A stretch of DNA of 64,000 bases from Mustelus asterias (Eukaryota). Made by a program: the position numbers and the translations under genes. Under the pieces are notes generated by a model. The model did not search any database and was not told where the DNA came from. It saw only the letters and a program-made list of their open reading frames with translations. The number at the start of each line of letters is the position of its first letter. Position 1 is the stretch's first letter. The DNA is taken from NCBI RefSeq assembly GCF_964213995.1, contig NC_135810.1, positions 87,110,001-87,174,000 on the forward strand, in the 5' to 3' direction. Below are positions 7,199 to 62,229 of this stretch, in pieces.

Positions 7199-7303
7199 GA
7201 GTTCTGAAGAAGAGTCATATGGACTCAAGACGTTAACTCTGTTTCTCCCTCCACAGATACTGCCAGACCTGCTGAGCTTTTTCAGCGTTTTCTGTTTTTA
7301 TTT
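7199..7303 (+). mobile_element. Penelope-like terminus, family B single arm, degenerate hammerhead motif
   Basis: gagtt-CTGAAGA-A-GAGTC-atatg-GACTC-aaga-CGTT-aactc followed by ...ccacagatactgccagacctgctgag. Confidence 0.75.
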
Positions 7304-7698
7304 AATATAAGTGTTTTGCGCTATGATAAACAAAACAAAAGAACACTAATCTGCATGTAGCACATTCAGTTCATTCTCAATAAAACTGATCATTCCCTTC
7401 TCATTAATGTTCGTGGTTGGAATGTGCCTCTGTGCTGACTTAGCCTTTTCTCGTCGATTATTTACTTAGATTATATTTTATATGGTATCCCAGAGCAACT
7501 TAAGAGTTAAGTTTCAGGTTTTTAAATTGAACATCTTCGGCAGTCTTCGATATGTGAAAATTAACGTGATTTTGATTGTATTTATTTCTATCAATGTTTT
7601 CCCACAGGCCAGGATACCTACTCATAGAATATTTAAATCAATTACTATAAAACTACCTCCGTGCTGAGTCAGGGAATATACTAGAGTCTGAAGGGCTG

Positions 7699-8494: not shown

Positions 8495-8800
8495 ACACAG
8501 TGGCACAGTGGTTAGCATTATTGCCTCACAGCGTCAGGGATCCGGGTTCAATTCCCGGCTCGGGTCACTGTCTGTGTGGAGTTTGCACATTCTCCCCATG
8601 TCTGTGTGGGTTTCCTCTGGATGCTCCAATTTCCTTCCACAGCCCCAAAGACATGCTGGTTTGGTGAATTGGCCCTGCTAAATTCTCCCTCAGTGTACCC
8701 GAACAGATGCCGGAGTGTGGCAACTAGGGAAATTTCACAGTAACCTCATTGCAGTGTTAACGTAAGACTACTTGTGGCTAATAAATAAACTTTAAACTTT
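8495..8800 (+). mobile_element. V-SINE, alternative-tail subfamily
   Basis: HE1 head and V-domain, then ...ggagtgtggcaactaggg..tttcacagtaac..tacttgtgg..aataaataaacttt. Confidence 0.9.
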
Positions 8801-9388: not shown

Positions 9389-9426
9389 AGTAAGAGTTTT
9401 AACAACACCAGGTTAATATGCACCAC
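9389..9426. mobile_element. 38-bp Penelope family A micro-insertion
   Basis: agtaagagttttaacaacaccaggttaa matches the family A arm; perfect 12-bp TSD gtgcatgaatat (9377-9388, 9427-9438). Confidence 0.75.
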
Positions 9427-14335: not shown

Positions 14336-14448
14336 AAAATATAGGAAATCCTGGAAAAACTCAGCAGGTCTGGCAGCATCTGTGGAGGGAGAAACAGAGT
14401 TAATGTTTTGAGTCCATAAGATTGTGTGCACTGAAGAAGAGTCATATG

Positions 14449-14574: not shown

Positions 14575-14695
14575 CTGGACTCAAAACGTTAACTCTCCTC
14601 TCTGCACACTTGCTGCCCGAGACCAGCTGAATTTTTGCAGCATTTCCAGTTTTTATTTTAGAACTCAGTTGTCACTTGAAGATTGAAAAATCATT

Positions 14696-17876: not shown

Positions 17877-17920
17877 TTTCATTTCGCCAGCTGTGCAATT
17901 AAGCTGCTACATCATTGGGT

Positions 17921-18237
17921 ATAGAATCACAGAATCCCTACAGTGCAGAAGGAGGCCATTTGGCCCTTCGAGACTGTACCGACCACAATCTCACCCTATT
18001 CCCGTAACCCTCACTTACCCTGCTAATCCCCTGACACTAGGGTCAATTTAGCACGGCCAATCAATCTAACCCACACATCTTTGGACTGTGGGAGGAAACT
18101 GGAGCACCCGGAGGAAACCCAGGCAGACACGGGGAGAACGTGCAAACTCCACACAGACAATGACCCGAGGCTGGAATTGAACCTGGGATCCTGGCGATGT
18201 GAGGCACTGTGTTAACCACTGTGCCACCACGCCGCCC
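17921..18237 (-). mobile_element. HE1-type V-SINE, full length
   Basis: Complete head, V-domain and CR1-type tail. Confidence 0.95.
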
Positions 18238-25948: not shown

Positions 25949-26164
25949 TGGTTCCCAGCTGCAAACGTTGCCAGTTTAAGTGTGTATATATCAGTTTCTC
26001 TTCAACTGCAGTGAAGGGGGACATTTTGCCTCTGCTGAAGAAAAATCAGCCACAATGGCTGTGAAAACTGGCCAGCTCTTATCCTGACATTTATGCCAGA
26101 GTCATGCACTCATCAAGGAAGAACACCACTCACGAACAGGGAAACAGGGTTAAACCATTTAGCA

Positions 26165-26333
26165 GAACAATGCTGGAAAACCTCAGCAGGTCTGACAGCA
26201 GAGCCAACATTTCGAGTCTAGTTGACCCTTCATCAGAGCTGAGAGGTCATCTAGACTCGAAACGTTGACTCTATTCTCTCTGCACAGATGCTGTCAGACC
26301 TGCTGAGATTTTCCAGCATTTTTCTGTTTTTGT
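26165..26333. mobile_element. Penelope family B fold-back element
   Basis: Palindromic arms tgctggaaaacctcagcaggtctgacagca / tgctgtcagacctgctgagattttccagca around a centre at about 26238. Confidence 0.8.
26201..26240 (-). ncRNA. Minimal hammerhead ribozyme motif
   Basis: Minus strand agcu-CUGAUGA-A-GGGUC-aacua-GACUC-GAAA-UG-UU-ggcu: core intact, stems I and II pair. Confidence 0.65.
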
Positions 26334-26335
26334 TG

Positions 26336-28399: not shown

Positions 28400-29895
28400 C
28401 CCCCCTGTGTGCAGGACTGGAGGTGTGTCGCTCACACGGAGCGGAGTGACAGATGGGCTGGACATCCCAGGTCCTCCTGGATGGAAGGCCCTGGGCCGTG
28501 CGCCTGCCAATCCTCCTCCCTTTGGGTACCCTAGGGCCTCTGAGCTCCTCCATGAAATAGTGTGGCAGCTGGAGTGAGGTCCAGAAGCCCTGCCATCCTC
28601 TGACACCTGTGGATTCCCACAAGTTCTTGAACCATGAAGTCAAAGCTGTGCACCATGGAGCTCATGCACTCCGCCATGGAGTGCATGTCATACACCAAGG
28701 TCTCTACTTCAGATGCCAACCACGCAGTGTTGGTCCGATTGCCTCAGAGTGCCAGTAACATCTCCTCAGACTGAAGGTGATGGGGCTCCCCCAGACAGCC
28801 TCGCAATCCAAGGAGGGATGATGACCTCCCTTCCTGATACTCGTGACTCTGTCTTTGCAGCTCCAGCAGCTGGATGTATTGAGAGTTTGCACTTTTGTCT
28901 CTTGCCCCCACCTCACCCTCTGCACAGGTGAAATCCTGCTCCTTGCCAGCCAACTCAAGGGCTCTTTCCTCAAACAGGGTGAGGATTTTGACTTGGGCAT
29001 CACTCCAGCATCCTGTGCCCATTCACGTTGGTTTTGCTCGAGTTTGTCATGCAGTGAGACAGATGGGGAGAGTGCAGGCAGGAGTTGTGCCGTGCCAGAT
29101 GGTGATGAAGTCTGGCATGCATGGGAGGTGAGTGGGAGCAGGGATGTGAGGAGCAGAAGAACTACTGGGGGTGGGGGGGGGGGGGGGGGGGGAGGGGGCG
29201 GTGAGTAATGGGGTTTGGGTGGATGAGGGGTGGGAGGGCAGCGTGACAAGTGTTGGGACCCTGTAAGGTGACTGGGTGAGAACTCCCCAAGGAGGCATGA
29301 TTGGTGTGTTAAGGGATGCAGCAGGAGACATGAAGAGGCACAGTGGCACAGTGGTTAGCACAGCTGCCTCACAGCGCCAGGGACCAGAGTTCAATTCCGT
29401 CCTCGGATCACTGTCTGTGTGGAGTTTGCACGTTCTCCCCATGTCTGCGTGGGTTTCCTCCAGGTGCTCTGGTTTCCTCCCACTGTCCAAAGATGTGTGG
29501 GTTAGGTTGATTGTCCATGCTAAATTAACCCTAGTGTCAGGGAGATTAGCAGAGTAAATATGTAGGGCTATGGGAATAGGGCCTGGTGGGATTGTGGTTG
29601 ATGCAGACTCGATGGGCCAAATGGCCTCCTTCTGCACTGTAGGGATTCTATGATTCTATAATTCTACTTACCCTGGCTGCATGAAGAAGGTCATCCATCT
29701 TCTTCCAGCACTGTGGCCCCATTGTCTTATAGAGTGAGCAGACACTCACTATGGAGGCCACATTCTCCCAGGCAGGACTGGTCACTTTGCTGGTTGGATG
29801 TCTGCCTGACTGCGAATGCAGGTTGTCATGCTGGACACCATCTAGAAGGTGAAGGCTCCCCGTGTGAAACATAGTGCTGACTTCCTGGCAGCCAT
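28400..29895 (-). pseudogene. Harbinger partner gene (Myb/SANT-like DNA-binding protein), spliced and decayed
   Basis: Exon 29895-29672 MAARKS..LLDGV..AWENVASIVS....QCWKKMDDLLHAAR followed by GTAAGT; next exon about 29050-28900 DKLEQNQRE..LTLFEERALELAG; helical tail ETLVYDMHSMAECMSSM. Confidence 0.8.
29335..29665 (+). mobile_element. HE1-type V-SINE inside intron 1 of the Myb/SANT remnant
   Basis: Full head, V-domain and (gattctat)n tail abutting the splice donor. Confidence 0.95.
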
Positions 29896-30974: not shown

Positions 30975-31092
30975 GTGGAGATGCCGGCATTGGACTGGGG
31001 TGGGCACGTTAAAGTCCATAAAGGAGCGCTCCGAAAGCTCGTGATTCCAAATAACCCGTTGGACTTTAACCTGGTGTTGTGAAACTTCTTAC
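30975..31092. mobile_element. Penelope family A short insertion inside an L2-type remnant
   Basis: gtggagatgccggcattggactgggg..ggagcgctccgaaagctcgtga..aacctggtgttgtga; 13-bp TSD catgcctattatg / catgcttattatg. Confidence 0.8.
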
Positions 31093-37089: not shown

Positions 37090-37440
37090 CTTTTTTTATT
37101 CATTCATGGGCCAGCATTTATTGCCCACCCCCAATGTTGCCCTTGTTTAGAGGGCAGTTGAGAGTCAACCACATTGCTGTGAGCCTGGAGTCACATGTAG
37201 GCCAGACCAGGTAAAAATGACAAATTTCCTTCCCTGAAGGACATTAGTGAATCAGATGGGTTTTTCCGACAATCGACAATGGTTTCATGGCCATCAGTAG
37301 ATTCTTAATTCCAGATATTTTTTGTTGAATTCAAATTCCACCATCTGCCGTGGCGGGATTCGAACCCAGGTCCCCAGAATATTAGTTGAGTTTCTGGATT
37401 AATAAACTAGCGACAATACTACTAGACCATTGCCTCCCCC
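37090..37440 (-). mobile_element. Second tRNA-derived SINE family, full length
   Basis: Head ggggaggcaatggtctagt..GGTTCGAATCC; tail gggcaataaatgctggccc..gaatgaataaaaaaa. Confidence 0.9.
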
Positions 37441-39111: not shown

Positions 39112-39240
39112 ATAACCCCTTCCGAAGCAACATGCCAGTGATTGATTACTGCCGTAACCATCAAAAGTGTCTCATGTTCAGAGGCAGAATAACGTAACTA
39201 GATGACAGTTCTATTATGATCTATTCCTTGAGTTATCAGA

Positions 39241-39458
39241 GTAAGAAGTCTCACAACACCAGGTTAACGTCCAACAGGTTGATTTGGAATCACAAACTTT
39301 TGGAATGCTGCTCCTTCATCAGGTGATCATCATCACTCACCTGATGAAGGAGCAGCACTCCGAAAGCTCGTGCGTCCAAACAAACCTGTTAGACTATAAC
39401 CTGGTGCTGTGAGACTTCTTACTGTTCCCAACCCAGTCCAACGCCGGCATCTCCACAT
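39241..39458. mobile_element. Penelope family A fold-back element
   Basis: Inverted arms of about 86 bp (39241-39326 / 39337-39422) plus tail; 14-bp TSD cttgagttatcaga / cttgagttttcaga. Confidence 0.88.
39338..39372 (+). ncRNA. Minimal hammerhead ribozyme motif
   Basis: cac-CUGAUGA-A-GGAG-cagca-CUCC-GAAA-GC-UC-gug; predicted cleavage after C39369. Confidence 0.7.
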
Positions 39459-40022
39459 CTTGAGTTTTCAGAAAATGTTTGCCTGCAAGCGTTATAATGC
39501 TGTATTAATGAGAGCCGCAGAATCTTTAAACACTTCAAAATACTGCTACAATGACATTTCTAGTTACCTGTAACTCAAAATGAAGGTGGTATGTACTTTG
39601 TAACAAAATTCTAAGCTTGAGTGCTCCAATATTTACATAGTCACTTACCCAGAAAGAAGTATTACAAAATAATGAACTATGCATGCCCATTTGTGGGTTA
39701 GAGATTGGGCGGGACTAATGCCTAACCATTTGACTCCACAGCTACCATGCTGCAGATCCTTCCTGGGCTTTCGTTAAGGTGGTTTTGTACAGGTAGGTTT
39801 ACTGGTGCTGGGATACTTGCAAAGGTGGTCACTGCAGCTAACTGAAGGACTGGGATGTTTCAGGAGAGCAACAGACAATGGGGGCCGAACCATGTTGTGA
39901 GAGTTCACAGGATTTTCCAGATTCTTGTGTGCAGCTGTGAACTTCCTTTGAACAGCCCTGAGGGCCAAAGCATTGAGACTGTTGAGCAGAGTGCTGGGAA
40001 CCCCATTGTTTAGACTCTAAGT

Positions 40023-41055: not shown

Positions 41056-42366
41056 CTCTCAGTAGAGGAGTGGCAAAAGCTATCAAGGTGACACTAAATT
41101 TGCTGATAAAGCCTTCATTCAACTCCTTATCTCTCATACTCACTCTTCCTGTCAGCACCTTGAGAAGCTCAACTGTGCAAAGGATAATTCACTCAGGAAT
41201 TATCCAAACTCACACTTCTGTCAACTCACAGCCTGCATGAGGGCTCCTGTAGGTCTTCAAGGCATTATTTAAAGAGACGATGCACCTCTCCTCATTATGG
41301 GATGTATGAGGAAATCTCAATGCCATTCAGATGTCTCCCTCCTTCCAAAAGAAACATTTACCCATAATCATTACTTGCGAAATGCAGTGATGGAGGAAGA
41401 TCATCACTGATAACTCTTAGAAGAGGCTTTAGACAGGTGGACAGGAAAGCCAAAAGGTGATGGTAAAATTAGAGACAAGGTGGCAACAGAAGGCTGGCAA
41501 AAGTAGATGAAATGTTGATTTATAAATATAGAGGGTAGTTTTTATGTGCGCACAGTAAAAATGCGGGTAGTGGGCAGAATGGACAGACAACAGAAGTAGT
41601 CAGTGTGTGACCAGTGCAGTTTTCCAGAGTGCTGATTATTAACATGGGGTGGCAGAGCAGACACATAAAACTCCCCAGAGGCAGCTTGTTAACTTGGAGC
41701 CAGAAAGTCAGGCGGTATTTCCACCTCCGGGGGTGTTACAGCAGCTGAAAGGAAAGGCGTGCTTTTATGTTGTTGTAAAGTGAAAAATGGGTAAATGTAC
41801 CCCGACTAACCTTGACCAGTTGGCCGTAAACCTTTTTAACTCCATACAGTCAGCTCATATCTGCCTTCATCATTGCTGACTCTCCGAGTGAAAATCTGCA
41901 TAACCCCCTAATATCAGTGTGCATCATCCCACCTCAATGCTCCTGAGCTATGATCCATACCAACACATTTATATCCTGATGCTCAACATTACAGCATTTA
42001 CCATTAGTGACTTTGCACTCACAAGGCTATTGGGAATGTGTAGTGGTGTAGCACTGGGCCACAGGTTCTGGAATGTGATCCTTCACCTCAACCTTTGGCA
42101 ACTCTGTGATGCGAATTTCATTTGCTGATGTGATGTAGTCATTTGAGCTGTTGAGCCTAATCTCAATGTGCATTTGCTAGCGAGATGGGATGCCAATGCT
42201 GAGGGTGGAATTGGGCTAAGAGTGAATGCTGTTGATGTGTGCTCTTTATTATCGGTGATGCTGAAGCATCAGGACTCCATGATCTGTCTGCATTGCTGGA
42301 ATTGTGTGGGCCGTGGCTGGCCATCAGGGGGAAATGATTGTGTGGAAGAGGAGGCATGTTCCTGTG

Positions 42367-42676
42367 TTTAAAGTTTATTTATTAGTGTCAGAAGTAGGCT
42401 TACATTAACACCGCAATGAAGTTACTGTGAAAATACCTGAGTCGCCACACTCCGGCACCTGTTTGGGTACACCGAGGGAGAATTTAGCATGGCCAGTGCA
42501 CCTAACCAGCATGTCTTTTGGACTGTGGAAGGAAACTGGAGCGCCCAGAGGAAACCCACGCAGACACGGGGAGAATGTGCAGACTCCACACAGACAGTGA
42601 CCCAAGCCGGGAGTCGAAACCTGGATCTCTGGTGCTGTGAAGCAGCAGTGTTAACAACTGTACCACCGTGCTGCCC
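42367..42676 (-). mobile_element. V-SINE, alternative tail
   Basis: Reverse complement of the 8495/23784/61124 type, including the aaagtttatttattag end. Confidence 0.92.
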
Positions 42677-50253: not shown

Positions 50254-50872
50254 ACCCCACAGCCCTGACCCCCACAGCAGGCTGGCCAGCCCCGATCGCT
50301 GGCCTCCCTCCCTCTGTCACTCAGCCCAATTGCAGAGTGGCAGCAGGACCTCTTAGCCCCACCGATTGCCCCCCAGAGGTGCTGCCCCCATCAGGCCGTG
50401 CCCCCATTAGGCCCTGCCCCCATGGCACTGCCTGATGACTGTTGGGCAGTGCAAAGATGCCCCCTGGCATTGACACTCTGTCCCTTGAGCAGTGCCAGGT
50501 GACCCAAGCTGGCACTGCCAATGTAGTAATGCCCAGAGGGCACCCCTCTTGGCCGCCAGCTCCCCGCAAGTGGGGAGCTACACTAAGCCCCGCTGGAGTG
50601 AACCACTCCTGGTGGGAGGGAAGACATTTGTGGACCTGGAGATTTCAGTCCTGGGCCCACGAATGATATTTAAATGGTATGGAAATGATAATTTGAATAA
50701 ATTATACAGCTCCGTGCTGATTTCTGGCGCGGAGCTAACGCCACCAGAATCCGGCTGCCGGAAACTTACGGAGGCCGTGGCACCCAACGGGGAACCTGCA
50801 AAATGGCCTCTGTTTGATTCTCCTGACCCGCTGCATTACTAAAGCAGTGCAGCAGGATCGGAGAATCACCCC
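49747..50872 (+). mobile_element. GC-rich Harbinger-type MITE of about 1.1 kb
   Basis: Collinear with 53042-54153 and 247-2006; right end ggagaatcacccc; left TIR eroded. Confidence 0.75.
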
Positions 50873-52039: not shown

Positions 52040-54292
52040 ATCACAGAATTGCTACAGTGCAGAATGAGGCTATTCAGCCCATCGTGCTGCACCGGTTCTC
52101 TGAATGAGAAACTCACCTGGTACTATTCTCCACCTTCTCCCCACAACCCTGCCCATTCTTCCATATCACAAACAGTCTAATTCCCTTTTGATTACCAGAA
52201 TTGAATCTGCCTCCACCTCAGTCCTCAGGCAGTGCATTCCAAACCCTAATCACCTGCTGTATAAAAAAGCTTTTCCTCACATCACTTCTGCTTCTCTTAC
52301 TAATTACTGATTACTTTAAAGCTCTCTCCTCTCATTCTTGATCATTTCACACGTGGGAAGTTTCTCCTTCCTACTCTGTCCAGACCCCTCATGGTTTTGT
52401 ATATCTCCATCAAATTTTCTCTCAACCTTATTTTCTCAAAGGAAAACTATCCTAATTCTCCAATCTATCTTTTCAGCACCTTATCTAATGCCTCCACAGC
52501 CTTCCGAAAGTGTAGCATCGAGAACTGGATGAAATACTCCAGCTCAGGTCAGATTAAATCCTATTAATAAAGTGCAGAAGACTACCTGCTTTATTAATCA
52601 CTCTTGCAACATGTCCTGCTACCTTTAATGATTTATGCACATATATACCCAAATTCCTCTGCTCCAGCACCCCCTTTAGAGTTGTGCCCTTTATATTATA
52701 TTGTCTTTCCACATTCTTCCGAACACAATTATTTACTTCACATTTCTCTGCATTTAACTTAATCTGCCACCTATTTGCCCGGTCCACCTCTATGTCCCTT
52801 AGATATTCCACATAATCCTCTTCACAGTTCACAATGCTTCCAAGTTTTGTATCATTCACAAACTTTGAAATTGTGCCCTGTACATCAGGGTCATTAGGTC
52901 ACTAATATACATATAACGAAAAGCAAGGGTCCCAACACTGACACGTGGGGAACTCGACTACAAGCATTCCCCCACCATGAAAAAACATCTATTAACCTTT
53001 ACTGTTTCCTGTCACTCAGCCAATTCTTATATTGTTACTATGGGTGCAATTCTCCCAAAAGTGCTGAATTGGACGGGAAATTGTTCTCGATCACGACTGT
53101 TTTTTCAGTGTAGCTTCACACTCGAATTTCCCCACTCTGTGGACTGCAAAGGTCCCAGTCGGGAATCTCATTAAAACCCGGGGGATGGGGCCTATTCACA
53201 CCGGGGTCTGACACTTCTGGAACTCTGCGCATGCGCAGTGGCCCAGATCTGTCAATCTCCCTGTTTGCTGACCAGCTCGATCGCTCACCAGCCCGGGACC
53301 TCCAAAGTGCTGCCACTCCAGCCACCCCCCCCCCCCCCCCCCCGTCCTTCCCCCGTGACCCGATTGCGATCCCCACAACAATTCCGGACCGTCCCCGCCC
53401 CGGAACGCCCCAATGTCCAGCCCACCCCACCCCACCCCCAGCAGAGATGATCCCCCCACCCCCCTCACCCTGGCTGCCCCCCCCCCCCCCACCCCGCTGA
53501 CCCCCCCCCCAACCGGGGTCAGACCCCCCCCGGGAGGCAGACTCTCCCCGGCAGACCACCACCCCCCACAGCCCAGACCGATCGCAGCAGAGCCTCCCAC
53601 CACCCCCGATCACCCCTAGGCCCCACCCACAATAGGCCCCACCCCCTTGGCACTGCCCAATGCCCAGTGGGCAGTGACAAGGAGCCCCCTGGGCATGGGC
53701 ACTTTGCCCCTTGGGCAGTGCCAGGGACACAGGCTGGCACTATCAGGGTGCCCATGCCCATGCAGCACCACTCCCCTGCTGCCCGACCGCCTGGGGGGCC
53801 CTGATTGCTCCCTTCATTTCGACGGGTCTCCTACCATTTCCCCGAATGTGGGGAGCTACTCTAAACCCCGCTGGAATGAAGTACTCCTGGTGGGGTGGGA
53901 GATTCTATCAGGACCGGCAAGTTCCCGATAATGACATGCAAAACATATTTAAAACACATTAAAAAAAGATTCAAATCACTTACCTCTCTTCCTGCCAGTT
54001 TCCAGCGTGGTCTGGACTGCGACTGTTCTCTGGCTCTGGGAAATGCGCATGCATTCCTGGCGCTTGCACATACCCTGGAAAAAGGCCGGCGACGCGATTC
54101 TCCGCACTGGACCCACCAGAAAAGTTGCGGGTCGCAATGGGAGAATCGGGCCCTATGTTTCTTTCATTCCACGAGCTATAACTATGTTCAGAAGTCTGTC
54201 GTGCGACACTATATGCTGTAGATGAAGTTCATGTGTCCTTTTGAACTTCCATGTACACCATATCAACAGCTTTGCCCTGGTCACCTTCTCTG
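52040..54292 (-). mobile_element. Old CR1 LINE (part of RT to 3' end) interrupted by a MITE
   Basis: VPHVSVLGPLLF (GVPQGSVLGP), DTKLG..WQIKLNAEKCEV; 3' UTR tail at 52040. Confidence 0.85.
53042..54153 (+). mobile_element. Complete 1112-bp GC-rich Harbinger-type MITE
   Basis: TIRs gggtgcaattctccca / tgggagaatcgggccc; perfect TAT TSD; CR1 host resumes on both sides. Confidence 0.88.
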
Positions 54293-58221: not shown

Positions 58222-58364
58222 ACGTGGAGATGCCAGCATTGGACTGGGGTAAACACAGTAAGAAGTTTAACAACACCAGGTTAAAGTCCAACAGGTTTAT
58301 TTGGTAGCAAAAGCCACTAGCTTTCAGAACAGGCTGTCCCTTCGTCAGTGGGTGGGAGTTCTTG
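58222..58364 (-). mobile_element. Penelope family A single-arm insertion with hammerhead-like core
   Basis: Minus strand CUGACGA-A-GGGACA-gcc-UGUUCU-GAAA-GC-UA; perfect 12-bp TSD ttggtcaacaag (58210-58221, 58365-58376). Confidence 0.85.
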
Positions 58365-58389: not shown

Positions 58390-58755
58390 TTTTTTTTCAT
58401 TCACTCGTGGGACATGGGCATCGCTGGCTGGCCAGCATTTATTGCCCATCCCTAGTTGTCCTTGGAGGGCAATTGAGAGTCAACCACATTGCTGTAGCTC
58501 TGGAATCACATGTCGGCCAGACCATGTAAGGATGCCAGATTTCCTTCTCTCAAGGATATGAATGAACCAGATGGGTTTTGTCGACAATCGATAATGATTT
58601 CATGGTCATCAGTAGATTCATAATTCCAGATTTTGTTTCATTGAATTCAAATTCCACCATTTGCTGTGGTGGGATTCGAACCCGGGTCCCCAGAACATTA
58701 GCTGAGTTTCTGGATTAATAGTCTACCGATAATACCACTAGGTAATCACCTCCCA
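58390..58755 (-). mobile_element. Second tRNA-derived SINE family, full length
   Basis: Collinear with 37090-37440; B-box GGTTCGAATCC. Confidence 0.9.
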
Positions 58756-60619: not shown

Positions 60620-60756
60620 AAAAATAAAATACTGCAGAAGCTGGAAATCTGAAATAAAAAACAGAAAATGCTAGAAAAATGCACAAGGTCTGGTGGCATT
60701 TGCAAAGACAGAAACAGGATTAACATTTCAAGTCCAATGTGATTCTTCTTCGGAAT
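60620..60756 (-). mobile_element. Penelope family B single arm, diverged
   Basis: aaaatactgcagaagctggaaatctgaaa..ggtctggtggcat..ttaacatttcaagtcc..ttcttcttc. Confidence 0.7.
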
Positions 60757-61123: not shown

Positions 61124-61416
61124 GGGCAGCATGTTGACACAGTGGTTAGCACTGCTGCCCCACAGTGCCAAGGACCCAGGTTCGATTCCCAGCTTGGGTC
61201 ACTATCTGTGCAGAGTCTGCATGTCCTCCCGTGTCTGCATGGGTTTCCTCTGGGTGCTCCAGTTTTATCTCACAGTCCGAAAGACGTGCTGGTTAGGTGC
61301 ATAGGGTCATGCTAAGTTCTTCCTCAGTGTACCCGAACAGGTGCCGGAGTGTGGTGACTAGGGGATTTCATTGCAGTGTTAATGTAAGCCTACTTGTGAC
61401 ACTGATAAATAAACTT
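61124..61416 (+). mobile_element. V-SINE, alternative tail
   Basis: Head, V-domain and tail ggagtgtggtgactagggg..gtaagcctacttgtgacactgataaataaactt, with a small deletion. Confidence 0.9.
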
Positions 61417-62229
61417 AAAATTTAATGAACATTATAATTGACTTCAATATCCCAGGGATATGCAGGGAGACAAGTGTCAGTTAGGGTTCCTGCACAGGAT
61501 TGCCTGCCACTGTTGGAAAGAAGTTTGACAATGTATGTGGTTTGGTCAGGATTAGGAATGGCTGTGATCCTACCAAAGTTGAGAGGTCTACAATGACTCA
61601 TGATGTGGGCTAATACAAGGAAAATGACCAGTTGGACAAGACACAATTGGTCGTGGCATCATATGTCAGAATGAGTCAGTACCTTCATGAGATGAAAGGA
61701 GGAAATTGGGGCAAGGGAAAGCTTTTTTTTGCTGCTCAGTGAATCTTAAGCATAATAAAGAAACTCTCCACCTGAAAAATGGACATTGACAGGCAACTGA
61801 AAATCCCAAAATATTGGTCTTATGTACCTTATATAGCAATAATCTGGGAAGGGAAACTGAAGTCAGGTACAATGGATCACATAGTCTTAACTTGGACCAT
61901 GAGAAAGGAATTAGTGTTACTCAACTGTGCAACAAAGCAAAGTCTTGGGGAAGACCTTGACCCTTGAACATTCTGCAAGTTGATCAGGAGGGCTGAGAAT
62001 TAGAACATGGGAAATGGAGGTCCCAGTGTATTGCTCGGTTCAAATGACATGACTAGATTGCTCAACAGGCAGGGTTATAGTTAGAAAATAGAATTGAGAC
62101 GTCCAGACCCTACTCACAAAAAACAGCTTTCGAAACTGTGCCAAAGCCTGGCTTCACCTAATCCACTGGTTCTCTTCCAGTCATGATCCTGTCAACATTT
62201 AAAGTCACAAATGGTAGGAGGCAGGGAGT

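Follow-up and report, generated by a model that had tools for sequence, protein, structure and literature searches.

EN+ Penelope-like elements (PLEs), as described in parts of PMC8557442 and PMC3846280, carry pLTRs and a single ORF with RT, a CX2-5CxxC linker and a C-terminal endonuclease, are heavily 5' truncated, and lie beside an inverted truncated copy with a one-sided tail of 30 to 40 bp and a target-site duplication (TSD). The minimal hammerhead ribozymes of metazoan pLTRs, in the portion of PMC4209133 drawn on here, combine the core with an unpaired base before stem II, G10.1-C11.1, a palindrome replacing helix III and covarying stems. Pairs of such motifs on opposite strands, 100 to 700 bp apart, are known, and most motifs have been ascribed to truncated PLEs; that portion covers fishes, coelacanth, frog and reptiles, with no shark, and holds no breakpoint analysis. 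Priming of both target strands in vitro is documented, in the excerpts of PMC11167929 used, for the Anolis element alone, Poseidon of Anolis carolinensis (PAc); its cleavage is protein-assisted and dispensable in vitro, and in the excerpts none of its reads end at the cut. Non-LTR retrozymes, already known from one chondrichthyan genome, are short, non-coding and PLE related and carry a type I hammerhead (sections of PMC7229834 and of bioRxiv 10.64898/2026.07.22.740005). In the literature searched, with most subscription journals outside its scope, neither a shark PLE with a hammerhead nor the term "twin priming" for PLEs was found.

A 64-kb stretch of the Mustelus asterias genome (hereafter the window) contains a 218-bp insert (39241-39458) that is almost certainly a truncated PLE insertion. 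It shares the features listed above for EN+ PLEs and for minimal pLTR hammerheads: pLTRs, an inverted 5'-truncated copy, a one-sided 35-nt tail and a TSD are all present (Table 1). An earlier reading of the sequence alone had described inverted arms of about 86 bp, a 14-bp TSD, a full hammerhead core in the right arm and an antisense copy in the left arm with GAAA decayed to AAAA, and the sequence bore this out. The arms (39240-39326 and 39337-39423) are 87 nt long and 86% complementary, ranking second by length among the inverted pairs of the window, while the two TSD copies match at 13 of 14 positions. The tail is found on the right arm only. Stem II has 4 bp, against 5 bp in most sister copies, and the predicted cut falls after position 39369. 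Slipped synthesis is the likely source of the filler at the junction, judging by its sequence. The RNA of the insert is predicted to fold into one long hairpin (-121 kcal/mol) in which the ribozyme is paired with its antisense copy. An Rfam scan of the insert gave no match to the hammerhead models, which do not cover the minimal form, and returned only the hairpin models mir-875 and mir-216 far below gathering scores, so that a miRNA was rejected. A MITE was also rejected, given an RT-encoding parent and outer ends made unequal by the 35-nt tail. The insert was likewise not assigned to the non-LTR retrozymes, which are head-to-tail tandems with canonical hammerheads and expressed circles, whereas here the arms are head to head, the single complete core is minimal, and there is no fixed unit length or junction.

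Table 1. Positions in the window of the 218-bp insert, its relatives and other repeats
Feature	Position	Strand	Remarks
Left target-site duplication	39227..39240		Last base doubles as outer base of the inverted arm
Inverted pLTR arm without tail	39241..39326	-	Runs from the tail-less end and stops 4 nt before hammerhead C3
Junction filler, 7 nt	39327..39333		Repeats neighboring TCATCA
Direct pLTR arm	39334..39459	+	Begins 6-7 nt upstream of C3, the subfamily hotspot and putative start site
Minimal type I hammerhead	39338..39372	+	Stem I 3 bp, CUGAUGA, stem II 4 bp, GAAA, AGCU palindrome
Hammerhead parts	CAC 39338-40, CUGAUGA 39341-47, A, GGAG/CUCC 39349-52/39358-61	+	Right arm sequence
Hammerhead parts, 3' half	GAAA 39362-65, GCUC 39366-69, GUG 39370-72	+	Right arm sequence
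One-sided tail, 35 nt	39425..39459	+	Typical of Penelope-like elements (parts of PMC8557442, PMC11167929)
Right target-site duplication	39459..39472		First base doubles as last base of the tail
Stub, 38 bp	9389..9426	-	28 nt of tail-less end, 12-bp TSD, no hammerhead
Two-armed stub, 118 bp	30975..31092		42-nt tail arm and an arm beginning inside stem II; incomplete hammerhead
Single-arm stub, 143 bp	58222..58364	-	Sister subfamily, 12-bp TSD, hammerhead core present
Family B stubs	7201-7305, 14337-14421, 14576-14658, 26163-26334, 60652-60755		Minimal hammerhead
Dispersed SINE-like repeats	2358-2681, 17920-18237, 29337-29660, 8496-8799		300-330 bp
Dispersed SINE-like repeats	42366-42676, 61124-61423, 37109-37438, 58430-58754		300-330 bp

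The three relatives of the insert in the window had been read as fold-backs with hammerheads, each with its own TSD. The TSDs stood, but the hammerhead is incomplete or absent in two of the three, and one is single armed, leaving one of the four family A pieces with both a complete core and a fold-back. The 118-bp stub, with a 13-bp TSD containing one mismatch, begins 13 nt inside the ribozyme and CUGAUGA is absent. The 143-bp stub has no fold-back and has lost one C just 5' of the core, beside stem I; its stem II differs but does pair (GGGACA/UGUUCU), as had been claimed. Using tblastn, no coding sequence of the family (RT or GIY-YIG) was found in the 64-kb window (best E value, 6.9), in agreement with the earlier reading.

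A search of the genome with the right arm returned 2,094 first-look candidates, the best 40 of which were scored, and two of these loci extend into RT or endonuclease sequence. That RT piece, used as a query in turn, returned 18,018 first-look candidates, of which the best 150 were scored. One locus, L061, contains an uninterrupted 892-amino-acid ORF with an RT match (RVT_1; E value, 7.6e-10), a CX4CxxC linker (CHSNLCKTC at 754), and the motifs NVVY and YIGET. By features its C terminus resembles GIY-YIG clusters (score, 0.97; the family is found on 31% of members); the Pfam GIY-YIG model gave no score for this ORF, and PDB sequences gave no match at an E value of 1. By the linker definition given in the consulted part of PMC8557442, the sequence places this parent among the EN+ PLEs of the Neptune/Nematis type. 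L061 spans 5 kb and consists of an inverted, tail-less full copy and a direct 1-kb arm bearing the tail, flanked by a TSD; the arms are 99% identical and the ends are those of the 218-bp insert. The autonomous RT and GIY-YIG element that the sequence-only reading had asked for is therefore present in the same genome with the same ends and layout. The Penelope origin and minimal hammerhead proposed there are supported. The tail of L061 ends one base before the ATG of the ORF, and the 3' end of the direct arm of the insert (39459) is the base just 5' of that ATG; the short arm is thus copied from the leader of the RNA.

Set against the EN+ PLEs described in the same parts of PMC8557442 and PMC3846280, the Mustelus family has a TSD mode of 13 to 14 bp rather than the 8 to 10 bp of the rotifer examples, a tail directly 5' of the ATG rather than inside the ORF, and a very high share of leader-only stubs. 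The ORF of PAc begins inside stem II, whereas the Mustelus ribozyme lies wholly in the leader (excerpts of PMC11167929). Very often the tail is followed by AT, ATG or ATGAC, which match the start of the ORF, a pattern that suggests short target-template pairing at priming. Several insertions (L061, L216, L173 and L179 among them) lie inside LINE-like RT sequence, and L061 and L173 have the common flanking target AATGGAAGAA, which hints that the endonuclease may prefer certain sequences.

Exact matches to the tail numbered 75,285 genome-wide (control, 0). An unselected sample was assembled from 54 stretches at round coordinates, 90 loci picked by their tails, all within the first 3.4 Mb of one contig (3 listed places omitted), and the window. 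It held 136 tail ends not selected for length, of which 91 had an inverted arm, 2 lay at an edge and 43 were scored as solo, although some of the long solo-scored ends may be chaining failures. Inverted arms finished near the tail-less end in 84 of the 91 two-armed copies, and a TSD of at least 10 bp was found in 64 of them, with a mode of 13 to 14. Direct arms (n = 134) ranged from 23 bp to more than 1 kb, with 26 of 100 bp or less, 50 of 101 to 150 bp, 43 of 151 to 500 bp and 15 above 500 bp, and arms overall formed a continuum from about 30 bp to 3 kb. The lengths of the two arms correlate (rho = 0.77), 38 of 84 pairs lying within 12 nt of each other against 10.7 in permutations; among pairs with an arm longer than 170 bp the correlation was weak (rho = 0.34; n = 32; P = 0.06). 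Either arm can be the longer: of the 84 pairs, 27 have an inverted arm that exceeds the direct arm by more than 12 nt, and 19 show the opposite. Both arms were of a common subfamily type in 50 of 55 pairs. The remaining 5 pairs and the locus G000:C1:1272469-1272539 seem to join arms of differing subfamilies, some of which may be typing errors; a fold-back with arms of two subfamilies requires two RNAs.

Counted by landmark spacing across the genome, fold-backs numbered 8,629 at spacings of 70 to 100 and 5,753 at 10 to 40, the pattern being its own reverse complement so that each was counted once per strand. Among the 50 fold-backs listed at spacings of 70 to 100, the junctions are nearly all different by eye, with one pair sharing a complex junction. 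This pair, L211 and L212 (G000:C1, near 5.83 and 7.01 Mb), has different TSDs and one common complex central junction, to which that of L213 is related; no derived changes shared by L211 and L212 were seen by eye, and the three may belong to a small branch that was amplified whole. The sequence-only reading had offered two options, extreme truncation or a self-processing family, and had proposed to separate them by the recurrence of breakpoints. Unique breakpoints and truncation largely prevail. Breakpoints do cluster, but at positions of the parent RNA, with separate TSDs and on either arm. A parent in the same layout, the continuum of arm lengths and the mostly unique junctions thus favor truncation.

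Arms break most often just before the ribozyme core. Between 20 nt upstream and 9 nt downstream of C3 the break rate is 0.0134 per bp, compared with 0.0018 to 0.0052 elsewhere (2.6 to 7 times), and this interval holds the stops of 32 of the 54 arms in the subfamily of the insert. For this subfamily in the unselected sample, starts are spread from -8 to 0 relative to C3 in 20 of 32 arms, with none exactly at -6; the peak at -6/-7 (15 of 39) comes from right-arm-search loci chosen for full-length matches. Long copies contain TATATAT at -39, which places a TATA-like box 33 nt upstream of the start position, and a CCACTCA whose A lies at -6; the two resemble the consensus sequences of a TATA box and an initiator. 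At -7, where the template has C, 1,239 matches have a non-template base. Among the 100 of these listed, it was G in 68, T in 19 and A in 13 (by eye), and among 30 fetched loci, about 23 of which are tail-less arms, it was G in 24. With point changes and loci directly abutting the partner arm excluded, G remained in 20 of 26. At other breaks, taken as a control for the excess at -7, G made up 38 of 128 non-C letters (Fisher P = 1.3e-8). The direct arm of the insert itself starts at -7/-6 without the extra G.

In L1 and SVA insertions, an untemplated G at the 5' end has been ascribed to copying of the cap, in the part of PMC3287187 consulted; there it marks full-length insertions, whereas the Penelope G marks a 125-nt leader copy centered in a two-armed insertion. 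The extra G marks the end of the template more firmly than it marks a cap, since untemplated addition of C at any run-off could yield G. That -6 is a capped start of pLTR transcription is, on these sequence features, a reasonably probable reading.

A second peak was sought at the predicted cut site using genome-wide patterns that required two non-template letters before a given position. The predicted cut is the starting point of 1,332 arms in the GUGUGG subfamily, compared with 307 for the position two bases upstream (4.3-fold) and 329 for +4 (4.0-fold, although the +4 control pools more subfamilies). The 37 fetched loci came from the first 39 rows listed, one of the other two having been sampled already and one being a second arm. 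Their flanks differ and most show a TSD; the arm that stops at the cut usually bears the tail, and at other loci it is tail-less. This peak rather likely reflects true hammerhead cleavage of the template RNA, as far as genomic break positions can indicate. PAc gave no reads at the cut, in contrast to this 4-fold genomic peak (excerpts of PMC11167929). In the unselected sample no cut-site peak was seen, 6 of 235 arms lying within 1 nt of the site. The ATGG subfamily was set aside as support, the signal being weak (319 arms against 325 and 271; 1.5- and 1.8-fold after correction for letter sets) and confounded by a CATG palindrome that offers microhomology, with about 31 of the 100 matches listed being CCATGG palindromes by eye.

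Ribozyme conservation was examined across 226 copies with a complete core. CUGANGA and GAAA, a palindrome at 15.2-16.2 and H at position 17 identify a minimal type I hammerhead; AGCU hardly varies, and U, A or C occupies position 17, the bases after GAAA being GCTT in 94, GCTA in 57 and GCTC in 56 copies. The first pair of stem I is C-G in 150 and U-A in 50, pairs 1 to 3 of stem I are paired in 91 to 96% and pairs 1 to 4 of stem II in 96 to 100%, with three types of stem II, all these figures being copy counts rather than independent events. Retention of the stems fits a motif under selection in active sources, as read from sequence. Unconstrained cofolding did not yield the dimeric helix III.

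The best explanation of the insert, which we consider very probable, is that an autonomous Neptune/Nematis-type PLE inserted in 5'-truncated, head-to-head form, built from two leader cDNAs at a staggered cut with run-off at a putative capped start. A staggered cut of 13 to 14 nt would open the target, and both ends would prime on the leader of the element RNA. Two short cDNAs, presumably from one RNA or one RNP, would run off the likely capped start of the template or stop early, and would be joined through 0 to 2 nt of microhomology in one event. In the GUGUGG subfamily run-off would often occur at the predicted scissile bond, probably because the template RNA had been cleaved there. On this account the hammerhead is a passenger of the parent's leader, with the antisense arm predicted to mask the ribozyme in the insert. 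This account resembles that of PAc, in which the tail lies between two RT start sites, each target strand is cut and extended, a dimer is predicted and the hammerhead is upstream of the RT start (excerpts of PMC11167929).

Assembly of the head-to-head insertions from two cDNAs is probable, given the shared outer ends, the common subfamily of the arms, their correlated lengths and the fact that either arm may be the longer. Self-priming, in which one cDNA folds back and the stops reflect RT stalling on the hammerhead structure rather than RNA ends, has been proposed for PLE palindromes (part of PMC3846280) and agrees with the many near-perfect palindromic junctions with 1 to 2 nt of microhomology and with the correlation of arm lengths. 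A cDNA without a tail could not gain one by copying itself, but in the 27 pairs noted above it is the tail-less arm that exceeds its partner by more than 12 nt, and at several loci a cut-ended arm is tail-less beside a tail-bearing partner; stalling, moreover, predicts neither an extra G at one position nor a one-base peak at the scissile bond. We consider self-priming unlikely as the general route, and hairpin self-priming may still apply to symmetric short copies. Long perfect palindromes are unstable, and correlated arm lengths would also follow if long palindromic insertions had lost their centers by deletion or repair after insertion, leaving symmetric stubs. The kilobase arms of L061 persist at 99% identity, however, single-arm copies stop in the same region, and DNA deletion is blind to a ribozyme cut site and adds no G, making such collapse the least probable of the readings weighed here.

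The other option of the sequence-only reading, a non-autonomous retrozyme-like family in which the fold-back is transcribed, processed by the hammerhead and reinserted whole by the parent's RT, would account for the abundance of short copies (the two fold-back classes counted above), the clustering of breakpoints and the complex junction common to L211 and L212 and related in L213; non-autonomous PLE derivatives are known as well (parts of PMC8557442 and bioRxiv 10.64898/2026.07.22.740005). It is very improbable. Nearly every junction among the 50 listed is distinct, lengths are continuous up to full length, and one short junction is found with the tail on one arm in L216 and L250 and on the other in L227 and L230, a pattern that a copied unit would not show. 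There are no same-sense tandem hammerheads; with the hammerheads opposed, two cuts cannot free a unit, and the RNA is predicted to form one hairpin that buries the ribozyme.

Returning to assembly from two leader cDNAs, the positions at which arms pile up likely record the natural ends of the copied RNA, namely, a capped start and, in one subfamily, the hammerhead cut. We give about even chances to the broader proposition that the stubs form a fossil map of the 5' ends of germline template RNA, with a capped start marked by G, a second peak at the ribozyme cut in the subfamily whose stem II is longest, and both arms arising from one staggered cut on one RNA. If so, the PLE hammerhead would cleave RNA already bound for insertion, and two-strand priming on one RNA would resemble a retroviral strong-stop product caught in a chromosome. 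The insert itself is ordinary, its value lying in the family-wide record of RNA ends: with tens of thousands of stubs, template ends can be located to the base and subfamilies compared by the length of the ribozyme stem. The stub family thereby bears on whether the minimal hammerheads of PLEs cut in living cells and on how head-to-head insertions arise.

A second family of stubs in the window, family B, has an ACGU palindrome and a stem II of 5 bp; its copies end at either of two 3' positions about 36 nt apart and include fold-backs. It gave 21 matches in the 54 random stretches. No coding copy was found among the fetched loci, where L161 has one weak EN-like match upstream of the family B end (E value, 0.046). 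In many family B copies (L118, L147, L166, L175 and L197 among others) UUGACAA replaces CUGANGA, a U3-A8 core covariant known from Cercyon elements (portion of PMC4209133). Elsewhere in the window, a GC-rich MITE-like element at 444-1775 has inverted ends of about 410 bp with 76% identity, and related pieces lie near 50285-50704 and 53603-54010. The dispersed repeat families of 300 to 330 bp listed in Table 1 share 78 to 88% identity and are SINE-like by size.
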